This document shows positions 38,101-41,100 of a stretch of 64,000 nucleotides of DNA, piece after piece. The stretch lies in the IMG/VR virus record IMGVR_UViG_2563366825_000011, positions 9,000-72,999 of that record. The stretch is one strand, 5' to 3'. Source of the DNA: a virus. Its lineage: Duplodnaviria > Heunggongvirae > Uroviricota > Caudoviricetes. The position numbers were made by a program. Each line of letters begins with the position of its first letter. The first letter of the stretch is position 1.

Positions 38101-41100
38101 CAACGTCGGCATAAACGGCGGCAACTCAGGCGTACGCGAAGGTAGCTGGGATCTGGGGGTAGAATGGTTCCCGATGCTCGAGAATCCTGTTAAAACGCAG
38201 ATTTCCGTCTTTACATGGACAGATGCCATCGACCATGGTACGGAAATGACCGCGACCCGTGATGGTGTTCGTGGAAAAGAAAAACTGGATGTCCCCATCA
38301 AGTTTTTATGGTGCTACGCCAGTAACACATTGATCAATCAACATGGCGACATCAATCACACCCATGAGGTGCTTCAGGATGACAGCAAGTGCGAGATGAT
38401 TGTTGGCATTGACCACTTCATGACGGCCTCGGCTAAGTATTGCGATATCCTGTTGCCCGACCTGATGCCAACAGAGCAAGAAGACCTTATCTCTCATGAA
38501 TCTGCAGGGAATATGGGCTATGTGATCCTCGCCCAACCCGCAACCTCAGCAAAATTTGAACGCAAACCCATCTACTGGATGCTGAGTGAAGTCGCCAAAC
38601 GCTTAGGACCAGACGTTTATCAAACCTTTACTGAAGGTCGCAGTCAGCATGAATGGATCAAATATCTCCATGCGAAAACGAAGGAACGTAACCCTGAGAT
38701 GCCCGACTACGAGGAGATGAAAACGACCGGGATCTTTAAGAAAAAATGCCCGGAAGAACACTACGTCGCTTTCCGCGCATTCCGTGAAGATCCACAGGCA
38801 AACCCGTTGAAAACACCTTCGGGGAAAATCGAAATTTATTCTGAACGACTGGCGAAGATTGCAGATACCTGGGAATTGAAAAAAGATGAAATTATTCATC
38901 CCCTTCCTGCGTATACCCCAGGTTTTGATGGCTGGGACGATCCCCTGCGGAAAACCTATCCACTGCAGTTAACGGGCTTCCATTACAAAGCGCGTACCCA
39001 CTCCAGCTACGGCAATATTGATGTGTTACAGCAGGCCTGCCCACAAGAGGTGTGGATCAACCCCATTGATGCTCAGGCACGCGGTATCCGTCATGGCGAT
39101 ACCGTGCGGGTATTTAACAATAATGGAGAAATGCTGATTGCCGCAAAAGTGACTCCGCGTATTCTGCCTGGCGTTACCGCCATCGGGCAAGGTGCGTGGC
39201 TTAAAGCGGATATGTTTGGTGACCGGGTCGATCACGGCGGCAGTATCAATATTCTGACCTCTCACCGCCCTTCACCGCTGGCAAAGGGAAACCCGTCGCA
39301 CAGCAATCTTGTCCAGATCGAAAAGGTTTAAGGAGTAGCCCATGACCACACAATATGGATTTTTTATCGATTCCAGCCGCTGTACTGGCTGTAAAACCTG
39401 CGAACTGGCGTGCAAAGATTTTAAAGTTGGTTACGTATCGTTTAAAATCAATTAGATAGCCCGTCATTTCTGCGCTCACACGTCCCAACATTGAAAAACA
39501 TGCAAAGCTTTGTAAGCCGATGCAAAGCTTTGTGTGTCTCACTTTTGTCCCAATACCAATCCGAATCCACCCTTTGTCATCATTGAGAAATGGCAAGGAA
39601 GAAAAGGATGTTACTGCACGATTTGACAAATCCGCCAGAGCTATCGCATACTGATCGCACTGAACAAATAAGCGGTCTCCGCACCCGATAGCTTTGCGGC
39701 TTTTTTATGCCTGCAATTTGGCATAGTTACATCCGTACAAAGGTCGGGTGGAGAGGCGTAATACAACACCCGCAAGGGGAATATGCCCAGAGCTTCTTAT
39801 TTGGCTCAGTTGACACCCGACCGCCAGCTACTAACTGGCGGTTATAAACTAAACAAATAAGGAGGTCATCATGACCAGTCAACTCATCCCCGTATTCAAC
39901 GGTTCTATCTCAAACCAAGCAGCCCTTCTATGCAATGCTCGCAATCTACACGCTTTCCTTGGGGTTGGTAAACGCTTTGCATCGTGGATAACAGAACGTA
40001 TTGCTGAATATGGTTTCGTTGAAAAACAGGACTATATGATTGCTTCCCAAATTCGGGAAGCAAAAGGTAGAGGCGGTCACAACCGCAAGGAATACCACCT
40101 CACCCTCGACACAGCCAAAGAGCTTGCGATGGTTGACGACTGCGTCCAATACTGACTATACTCCGCGCCGAGGCCTCGAAAACCTCCCAAAAGCGGATTA
40201 AACCAACCCCGTCAGTGTTGGATTTTTTATGCCTGTTATTCAGTGATAGCACAGTGTGCGGTCACATCCCCGATCAATGTCGGGAGGGCGACGAATACAA
40301 CACCCGCAAGGGGAATAAGTCCGCGGTATCTTTTGGGCCGTTTCGAGCCTCCCGGCACCACATCTTGTGGTGGCATTTCTCGAAAAAAGCCAAAGGAGGT
40401 CATCATGACCACTCAACTCATCCCTGTGTTTGAAGGTACAATCTCAAATGAACCTACGCTTCTGGTGAACGCGCGTGATTTGCATGGATTTTTAGAGGTA
40501 GGTAAAGATTTTTCTAACTGGATACGGGCCAGGCTAAACGAGTATGGATTCGTAGAAAATTTAGACTACATTCTATTTTCGCCAAATTTGGCGAAAACTC
40601 CAGGCCGCCGCCGCAAGGAATACCACCTCACCCTCGACACAGCCAAAGAGCTTGCGATGGTTGAACGTAACGAAAAAGGTCGCCAGATCCGCCGCTACTT
40701 CATCGAGTGCGAAAAGAAACTTCGCAACATTCAGCCAGTACAAGCAGAACCACAGCCGCAATTCACAGCCGAGGAAATCATCCTCCTTTGCTACATGCAG
40801 CTCTGGATGGAAAAAGCCCAGGACCTCAGCAAACACCTGTATCCCATCATGAAAGAGCTGAACTCCTCATACACGAACAAGCTGTATGACATTGCGTTTG
40901 AGACCATCTACATGGTGACGAAGAACAGAGATGCGTTACTGAGGGAAGTAACACGTCTCGACATGTCAAGTTCCGTTATCCAACGAGCCATGCCAATGCT
41001 GAAAAGCCTGCGGGCAAGGCAATTCGAATTCTGAAACTAAAGGAGCTTCGGCTCCTTTTTTCATGCCTGAACGACAACGCCGCTGAAATCGAAGAGTTAA

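Follow-up and report, generated by a model that had tools for sequence, protein, structure and literature searches.

In phage lambda, integration takes place between attP and attB through a tyrosine integrase, with a 7-bp overlap in a 15-bp core, arm-type sites, and the sib/tI element lying across att from int. Among Shiga-toxin phages, integration in ynfG has been described for the Stx phages 75/02 and POCJ13 (PMC5447701) and for the RM10410 Stx1a prophage (PMC10562709). An insertion in this gene is therefore not new, as the site is published and fairly common. Phages 75/02 Stx (NC_029120 / KF766125; Sepvirinae, Diegovirus) and POCJ13 (NC_025434) are Stx1-converting Shigella phages. The phage record closest to the DNA considered here is that of PhiR5_2 (PV340546), a stx-negative, 933W-like phage that was propagated on K-12 MG1655. 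A search of the literature found it named only in passing, in a preprint on phage defence. This study analysed a 64-kb stretch of viral DNA (hereafter the window), in which the first-pass annotation had placed one end of a prophage inside ynfG, so that the selenate/DMSO-reductase-like ynf operon of E. coli is split. It is very probable that a ~62-kb 933W/Shiga-toxin-phage-type prophage (Sepvirinae) is integrated there site-specifically, via the sequence TTTAAAG. Judged by sequence, the closest relatives of this prophage are Escherichia phage PhiR5_2 and the Shigella phages 75/02 Stx and POCJ13.

On the chromosomal side of the junction, ynfE (34421..36847, +) encodes a full-length protein of 808 aa without amino-acid differences from YnfE of E. 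coli G1/2 (WP_000041675.1) or of K-12 (MC4100, which has the same protein accession). Likewise, ynfF (36908..39331, +; 807 aa from the annotated start, with the ORF listed from 36905) shows none against MC4100 (WP_001340362.1) and G1/2, and the earlier view that both genes are intact thus stands. The next gene, ynfG, starts at the ATG at 39342 and is broken after about 28 codons, as had been proposed. When the intact ynfGH-dmsD-clcB segment of MC4100 was compared with the window by blastn, a single match was obtained, namely ynfG nucleotides 1-85 at 39342-39426 (85/85 nt identical, E = 7.7e-39), and neither the rest of ynfG nor ynfH, dmsD, or clcB was found within the 64-kb window. The same boundary emerged when 38900-39950 was compared by megablast with a set of 5426 complete E. 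coli genomes, chromosomal homology ending at query position 527 (window 39426); from 39427 onward the DNA is that of the phage. The 5' fragment of ynfG (39342..39426, +) holds codons 1-28 and the initial nucleotide of codon 29, including the Cys group C14/C17/C20/C24. It is continued by nine phage-derived codons (VGYVSFKIN) up to a TAG stop at 39453-39455, giving a truncated ynfG' ORF of 37 codons (39342..39455, +) that coincides exactly with the interval originally flagged. Residues 6-25 of this stump match the Pfam 4Fe-4S domain Fer4_2 (E = 5.9e-7), and genomes with the same junction list ynfG' as a pseudogene, a partial '4Fe-4S binding protein'. Full-length YnfG is a DmsB-type four-cluster ferredoxin subunit of 205 aa with four Cys groups, of which the window keeps group I only.

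An att core had been predicted near 39420-39430. It was placed at 39420..39426 (unstranded) by aligning four sequences, namely the junction in the window, uninterrupted ynfG, the 75/02 Stx attP, and the far junction of the related G1/2 prophage. The 7-bp overlap TTTAAAG at this position, which covers ynfG codons 27 and 28 and the initial nucleotide of codon 29, is the sole block common to all four. The attB reads GATT TTTAAAG ATCTTGG and the attP of 75/02 Stx reads CAAC TTTAAAG TTGGTTA, and imperfect inverted repeats flank the core in each (AACTTTAAAGTT in attP, GATTTTAAAGATC in attB). Over 39380-39500, the window follows ynfG (the attB half-site) up to and including TTTAAAG and then continues into the 75/02 Stx attP arm. 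This integrase-distal arm (39427..39560, +) is identical to that of the Shigella phage over 39427-39500, the stretch compared base by base. Direct repeats of ATGCAAAGCTTTGT at 39500-39513 and 39520-39533 form a 17-bp hairpin at 39498-39537 (-22.7 kcal/mol, z = -5.1), and a second strong hairpin is present at 39820-39842. The 8-mer ATGCAAAG occurs at -69, +80, and +100 from the core, i.e., on both arms, and these are three of its five copies in the 60.9-kb phage. A terminator was also suspected at 39655-39712 and was ruled out, as the fold was no better than that of shuffled sequence (z = -0.49).

The prophage occupies 24.6 kb of the window (39427-64000), which ends before the integrase and the far junction. 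In G1/2, whose prophage spans ~62 kb, the far junction consists of the other attP arm, TTTAAAG, and ynfG from codon 29. A 387-aa integrase (Pfam Phage_integrase, E = 1.5e-45) is encoded next to 'ynfG, ynfH, and dmsD, which share its orientation, with these genes directly downstream of the integrase gene and ynfH and dmsD intact, the full layout being ynfF-ynfG'-prophage-int-'ynfG-ynfH-dmsD. As ynfH/dmsD, the integrase, and the other junction all lie outside the window, it is the relatives that point to a simple insertion, rather than one that later underwent deletion or rearrangement, and to a far junction of this kind in the present genome. In the proposed mechanism, a phage tyrosine integrase would have recombined attP with the attB inside ynfG, with strand exchange within the 7-bp identity at ynfG codons 27-29, and the junction in the window would be the integrase-distal one of a short-tailed lambdoid prophage, corresponding to lambda attR. 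By analogy with the related genomes, this would leave ynfE-ynfF-ynfG' (28 codons) on one side and int-'ynfG-ynfH-dmsD ~62 kb away, with ynfH and dmsD separated from the ynfE promoter. Some phages that integrate into genes bring along a new 5' end by which the gene stays functional. A substitute ynfG 5' end of phage origin was not found at the G1/2 far junction, where the open ynfG frame extends no more than 45 nt upstream and contains no ATG, with GTG codons as the sole possible starts, and none of the four group-I Cys. Because the phage supplies no replacement for the 5' end, the lysogen would be without YnfG, the four-cluster Fe-S electron-transfer subunit.

Beyond the junction, the antirepressor cassettes that had been assigned to this prophage end were recovered as two ORFs with AntA/AntB domains. 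The first (39871..40155, +) is a truncated ORF of 94 aa (Pfam AntA, E = 7.3e-25), annotated in G1/2 as a partial antA/AntB pseudogene, with an sRNA-Xcc1 element (Rfam RF02221; 39742..39830, +; 69.1 bits, gathering score 53) 40 nt upstream. A second sRNA-Xcc1 element (40279..40364, +; 73.4 bits) sits at the same distance of 40 nt ahead of the second antirepressor gene (40405..41034, +; 209 aa from the G1/2-annotated start, with the mechanical ORF beginning at 40243), which carries AntA (E = 4.6e-26) and P22_AR_C (E = 5.5e-7) domains. After integration, each antirepressor cassette, behind its sRNA-Xcc1-type leader, would lie directly downstream of ynfEF, and 'ynfG-ynfH-dmsD would lie downstream of int. 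The ibrA-ibrB cargo (41231..43086, +) encodes a PAPS-reductase/DUF3440 protein of 408 aa (Pfam) and an IbrB-like protein of 214 aa, the ORF of which matched no Pfam family; IbrA/IbrB are annotated in phage PhiR5_2 and in G1/2. It is followed by an IS256-family insertion sequence (43111..44425, +) with a 402-aa Mutator-type transposase (43183-44391; Transposase_mut, E = 1.2e-118) and an 8-9-bp target duplication, TGGAGCCG(G). An assignment of this transposase to IS10 was ruled out by its Pfam match to the Mutator/IS256 family. The element is an insertion relative to G1/2 and was found in none of the related prophages examined; the coverage of 39300-49000 by any complete genome is at most 87%, and because of this insertion no genome of the collection matches the window exactly. 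The opposite strand carries a SocA/Panacea-domain gene (44498..45022, -; Pfam SocA_Panacea, E = 2.5e-19) and the gene for a giant virion-associated protein typical of 933W-like phages (45173..53557, -; 2794 aa, annotated LPD38/LPD5 domain). The latter is intact, shares 94.8% nt identity with its 75/02 Stx homologue, and is frameshifted in G1/2. Tail, lom, and hok-region genes (53643..64000, -) run past the window end and are collinear with PhiR5_2 38159-48455 at ~97% identity, and also with G1/2 and 75/02 Stx.

Apart from the one IS insertion, the window is collinear over 39427-64000 with PhiR5_2 (97-98.6%), 75/02 Stx (88-95%), and the G1/2 prophage (93-99.7%). In particular, 39420-61836 follows the 75/02 Stx genome collinearly when the latter is read in reverse, starting at its attP end, and 39443-46000 and 52311-64000 are collinear with PhiR5_2 56292-61526 and 38159-49999, respectively. 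It is unlikely, though not negligibly so, that the integrase-proximal part was deleted or rearranged after integration, possibly together with 'ynfG-ynfH-dmsD, which would have left the locus irreversibly damaged and the phage non-inducible. Events of the decay type are present in the window, e.g., the IS256-family insertion in the cargo region and the truncated first AntA gene, the related G1/2 prophage has several frameshifted structural genes and an IS1, and the visible portion of the element is 24.6 kb only. However, the whole of this portion is collinear with PhiR5_2, a viable phage, and the 2794-aa ORF, although frameshifted in G1/2, is uninterrupted here. The truncated AntA gene is no sign of decay, because the free phage 75/02 Stx has one too (a 288-nt antA/AntB CDS). 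A chimeric join of the ynf locus to a prophage from elsewhere, with ynfG really intact, has a vanishingly small probability. Repeated lambdoid sequence does make prophage-rich E. coli genomes prone to mis-joins, the window contains two lambdoid prophages, and the far junction falls outside it. The position of the break, however, coincides exactly with the 7 bp of a known attP core and not with repeated phage sequence, and a 180-nt junction probe matches 82 of the 5426 complete E. coli genomes, which were independently assembled, at ≥80% coverage, with 100% identity in 60/60 among the matches listed. Misassembly is rejected because the junction is that of a known attP core and recurs in these 82 genomes. 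Junction-positive genomes include the O104:H4 2011 outbreak lineage, G1/2, RM10410, STEC1589/1590, FORC_043, and others, for several of which the insertion has been described in publications, and ynfG is split into two places in 83 genomes.

The sequence itself entails the loss of YnfG. Its predicted consequences are a loss of Ynf activity, with inactivation of the system, and disrupted expression of ynfH and dmsD through polarity. The predicted phenotype is a loss of YnfG-dependent selenate/tellurate reduction, and the DmsD supply for DMSO reductase is possibly altered. In work of Lubitz and Weiner from 2003, the subunits of the Dms and Ynf enzymes are said to be able to replace each other in part; if so, YnfG loss need not abolish all YnfE/F activity. 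The idea that the placement is not neutral and provides two-way regulatory coupling of the active-lysogeny kind appears very improbable. The locus would then be a reversible switch, in which conditional excision restores ynfG, or anaerobic FNR-driven read-through from ynfEF into the antirepressor genes ties respiration to induction. If this were true, anaerobic transcription of FNR-activated ynfEF could modulate prophage induction or ibrAB cargo expression, and respiration that depends on Ynf and DmsD could in turn be modulated by transcription of phage int or by reversible excision. In favour of it, both junctions carry an identical core located within the ynfG reading frame, so that exact excision would rebuild the gene; in addition, the antirepressor genes are co-oriented with ynfEF and start 445 nt past the junction. 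Of the features of active lysogeny of the comK-phi10403S type, the identical core at both junctions, a prerequisite, was the one found. Between ynfG' and the antirepressor genes, however, lie the very stable hairpin at 39498-39537, the second hairpin, and two structured sRNA-Xcc1 leaders, and insulation is therefore favoured. Moreover, literature searches found no experimental report of switching at ynfG, and lambdoid phages commonly integrate within genes, so that an adaptive explanation is not needed.

Simple site-specific insertion is thus mainly an annotation gain, namely a 933W-type, possibly Stx-converting, prophage at a recognised hot spot with its 7-bp core defined, and the ynfG insertion opens no new biological question. 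It is common to ~1.5% of completely sequenced E. coli, the O104:H4 outbreak lineage included, and STEC and Shigella lysogens can be typed through the TTTAAAG core by attB/attL/attR PCR. In a Shiga-toxin-converting prophage, stxA/stxB are flanked by the Q antiterminator gene and the lysis genes; the corresponding region would be ~35-40 kb from the junction, past the window end. No stx is annotated in PhiR5_2 or G1/2, the closest relatives with ibrAB cargo, and 75/02 Stx has stx1.

Compared with the described systems, the locus is of the same type as Shigella phages 75/02 Stx and POCJ13, with which it shares the ynfG site, probably the integrase module, the attP with its arm identical over 39427-39500, and the integrase-distal order of AntA cassettes behind sRNA-Xcc1, giant LPD5/LPD38 protein, and tail genes, at a nucleotide identity of 88-95%. 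These phages differ in having Shigella hosts and in carrying stx1, the stx region here being expected beyond the window, and their cargo between the antirepressor and giant genes consists of Ea22/DUF551/DksA-like genes, whereas the window has ibrAB and Panacea. PhiR5_2 is closer still, with 98.6% identity over 80% of 39426-46000, ibrA/ibrB included, ~97% in the tail region, and agreement in the integrase-proximal attP arm as well (99.2%). The IS256-family element, which makes up the uncovered 20%, is missing from this phage, and it is recorded as a free phage genome and not as a prophage. Among the ynfG-inserted prophages of E. coli, cargo and stx content vary, and none has the IS256-family insertion of the window. 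The resemblance extends to phage lambda, in that a short identical core is flanked by imperfect inverted repeats, an 8-mer is repeated on both arms, and the position of tI/sib, opposite the int 3' end across attP, is taken by a strong hairpin; it is position only that suggests roles for the arm repeats and the hairpin. Unlike lambda, which has another integrase and an intergenic attB, the present prophage uses an attB within coding sequence.

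The ynfG gene starts normally in the window, with an ATG (read from the sequence) at 39342, 10 nt past the ynfF stop, and its open reading frame (39342-39455) encodes MTTQYGFFIDSSRCTGCKTCELACKDFK and then VGYVSFKIN, terminating in TAG at 39453-39455. When the intact ynfG-ynfH-dmsD-clcB segment of E. coli MC4100 was used as blastn query against the whole window, the sole match was that of ynfG nt 1-85 to positions 39342-39426 (85/85 identical, E = 7.7e-39); no further ynfG, ynfH, dmsD, or clcB DNA was found in the 64 kb. This comparison with an uninterrupted locus bears out the first-pass annotation, in which ynfG begins normally behind intact ynfE and ynfF and then gives way to prophage DNA. 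Both upstream genes, ynfE (34421-36847) and ynfF (36908-39331), are intact, and their products show no amino-acid differences from the K-12-lineage proteins or from those of E. coli G1/2, a complete genome that has the same junction. The 37-residue YnfG stump retains the first ferredoxin-type Cys motif alone (Pfam Fer4_2, residues 6-25).

The att core was defined by aligning four sequences, for which attP was rebuilt from the record of the Stx1-converting Shigella phage 75/02 Stx, a circle opened at attP, by joining and reverse-complementing its ends. The attP reads ...GGTGAGCAACAAC TTTAAAG TTGGTTACGTATCGTTTAAAATC..., attB in intact ynfG ...GCAAAGATT TTTAAAG ATCTTGGCCCGG..., the window junction ...GCGTGCAAAGATT TTTAAAG TTGGTTACGTATCGTTTAAAATC... 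(i.e., ynfG to the core, then phage arm), and the far junction in G1/2 ...GGTGAGCAACAAC TTTAAAG ATCTTGGCCCGG.... Since TTTAAAG, at 39420-39426, is the only sequence common to all four, the earlier placing of the core near 39420-39430 was correct. It spans codons 27 and 28 of ynfG plus the initial base of codon 29, and imperfect palindromes are centred on it in both attP (AACTTTAAAGTT) and attB (GATTTTAAAGATC). A 7-bp identity is typical of the overlap region of tyrosine integrases.

In a megablast search of 5426 complete E. coli genomes with 38900-39950 as query, chromosomal homology ended at query position 527 (window 39426) in thousands of genomes and extended across the junction in 55. The phage arm is identical to that of 75/02 Stx (39427-39500 compared), and the DNA from 39426 on matches lambdoid phages that are short-tailed and of Shiga-toxin-phage type. 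It is matched best by the stx-negative Escherichia phage PhiR5_2 (98.6% identity over 80% of 39426-46000); POCJ13 and 75/02 Stx, both of Shigella, rank next, ahead of many Stx1/Stx2-converting phages. The antirepressor cassettes expected past the break are present as two Pfam AntA/AntB ORFs (39871-40155 and 40243/40405-41034, both +). Next come, within 41231-43086 (+), the PAPS-reductase/DUF3440 protein IbrA (Pfam) and, 3' of ibrA, an IbrB-like ORF, named from the PhiR5_2 and G1/2 annotations, for which a Pfam search matched no family; a SocA/Panacea-domain gene (44498-45022, -; Pfam); and a giant 2794-aa ORF (45173-53557, -), the counterpart in the ORF listing of the LPD5/LPD38 giant protein of 933W-like phages. 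This ORF is uninterrupted in the window and annotated as frameshifted in G1/2. The att-end cargo comprises ibrA, ibrB, and the lone SocA/Panacea gene here, and Ea22/DUF551/DksA-like genes in other ynfG phages. From 39427 to its end, the window is collinear with PhiR5_2, 75/02 Stx, and the G1/2 prophage, with the sole exception of an IS256-family insertion of ~1.3 kb (~43111-44425) between ibrB and the Panacea gene, which encodes a 402-aa Mutator-type transposase (43183-44391; Pfam) and is flanked by an 8-9-bp target duplication, TGGAGCCG(G). The insertion was found in none of the related prophages and phages examined and is therefore a strain-specific marker.

The G1/2 locus runs ynfE-ynfF-ynfG' (84 nt that carry the annotation of a partial 4Fe-4S pseudogene), a ~62 kb prophage of 933W-type layout, a 387-aa integrase (Pfam Phage_integrase, E = 1.5e-45), 'ynfG (540 nt), ynfH, and dmsD. 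The integrase gene points the same way as 'ynfG-ynfH-dmsD, with ~52 nt between its stop codon and the core. No stx is annotated in the G1/2 prophage or in PhiR5_2, and stx1 is present in 75/02 Stx; any stx would fall past window coordinate 64000. A phage-supplied 5' end restoring ynfG was considered and rejected, as the 'ynfG frame at the G1/2 far junction is open just 45 nt upstream (NELSSRFQVVSNNFK-DLGPE...), with no ATG (two GTG codons only) and none of the four first-group cysteines. Judged by the established architecture of DmsB-type subunits, neither ynfG fragment could yield a functional four-cluster YnfG.

Within the window, the phage arm contains ATGCAAAGCTTTGT twice as direct repeats (39500-39513 and 39520-39533), which pair as a 17-bp hairpin (-22.7 kcal/mol, z = -5.1 vs shuffles). 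Relative to the core, copies of the 8-mer ATGCAAAG lie at -69, +80, and +100; the 60.9-kb phage genome has only five in all. By their position, the repeats and 8-mers are candidate arm-type integrase sites. The hairpin may likewise be the positional counterpart of lambda tI/sib, on the opposite side of att from int; in the prophage, where 72 nt separate it from the ynfG' break upstream, it would tend to block read-through from ynfF.

A junction-centred 180-nt probe (39337-39516; ≥80% coverage) was found in 82 of the 5426 genomes, with 100% identity in all 60 matches listed, and an independent 601-nt probe across intact attB showed ynfG split into two places in 83. The carriers include several STEC isolates, RM10410, and the O104:H4 2011 outbreak lineage (2011C-3493, C227-11, HUSEC2011). 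Since the junction of the German outbreak is the same (180 nt at 100%, e.g., NC_018658.1 2585566-2585745), ynfG is interrupted in that lineage as well. In a subset of E. coli genomes (e.g., NZ_CP080117.1), the ynfF-ynfG probe matched only from position 125 (95.8% identity) and the upstream gene is annotated simply as 'molybdopterin-dependent oxidoreductase', which suggests that the ynfE/ynfF region of this lineage has diverged or been rearranged. In the phage collection, the attP is common only to POCJ13, 75/02 Stx, PhiR5_2, and, partly, phiSTEC1589-Stx1c. The insertion in ynfG is thus real and was correctly read, yet it is already known, because the literature names ynfG as integration site: the S. 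sonnei 75/02 Stx phage occupies 'the ynfG homolog gene cluster', as does S. flexneri POCJ-13 (PMC5447701), and in E. coli RM10410 the Stx1a prophage is described as 'inserted within the ynfG gene' (PMC10562709).

Misassembly of the junction can in practice be dismissed, since the break follows attP logic exactly and the junction recurs in 82 independent genomes. Only 24.6 kb of the prophage are visible, so that the window copy could be a remnant without its integrase-proximal part; this is improbable, however, as the visible portion is collinear with a viable phage and its giant ORF is intact. A regulatory switch is conceivable, given that precise excision would regenerate ynfG, but very unlikely, and structured elements probably insulate the junction.

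The insertion destroys ynfG and parts ynfEF-ynfG' from the remaining operon genes. As the electron-transfer subunit, YnfG is predicted to connect the catalytic subunit with the quinol-oxidising YnfH, and DmsD, encoded last, is the Tat proofreading chaperone required by both selenate reductase and DMSO reductase (PMC5203670; PMC12096835). The lysogen would be predicted to lack YnfG-dependent selenate/tellurate reduction, and any ynfH and dmsD expression would depend on int read-through or internal promoters. That the insertion persists in 1.5% of complete E. coli genomes, successful pathogens among them, suggests a small cost. Lubitz and Weiner reportedly found in 2003 that subunits of the Dms and Ynf enzymes can in part replace one another, which, if so, would soften the phenotype of ynfG loss.

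A second lambdoid prophage, of the Qin/DicB type, occupies 1-29060 and ends at an integrase gene (27765-29060) beside rspB. It contains dicA, dicC, dicB, ydfD, a 402-aa ORF (15410-16618), DicF (24254-24305), a sok antitoxin RNA (18496-18667), and two cspA-type thermoregulator leaders (7040-7425 and 9935-10327), and differs from G1/2 at ~22484-24177.

In the 933W-like prophage, Rfam detected two sRNA-Xcc1 elements (RF02221; 39742-39830 and 40279-40364, both +), and in 75/02 Stx three (L004 16931-17014, +; L005 9926-10011 and 10463-10551, both -). They lie ~40 nt upstream of, and co-oriented with, AntA/Ant antirepressor genes (2/2 in the window and 3/3 in 75/02 Stx of the genes examined). According to the literature, the motif is also found 5' of an ORF6N gene of APSE phages and, within Xanthomonas integron cassettes, 5' of symE; upstream of an ORF6N gene in G1/2, isrK and C4 antisense RNA matches are found instead. 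Because sRNA-Xcc1 precedes antirepressor, ORF6N, and symE genes, it may act in cis as a 5' leader, or be a C4-like processed antisense RNA, to control potentially toxic mobile-element genes, which suggests a role beyond that of the trans-acting sRNA implied by its name.
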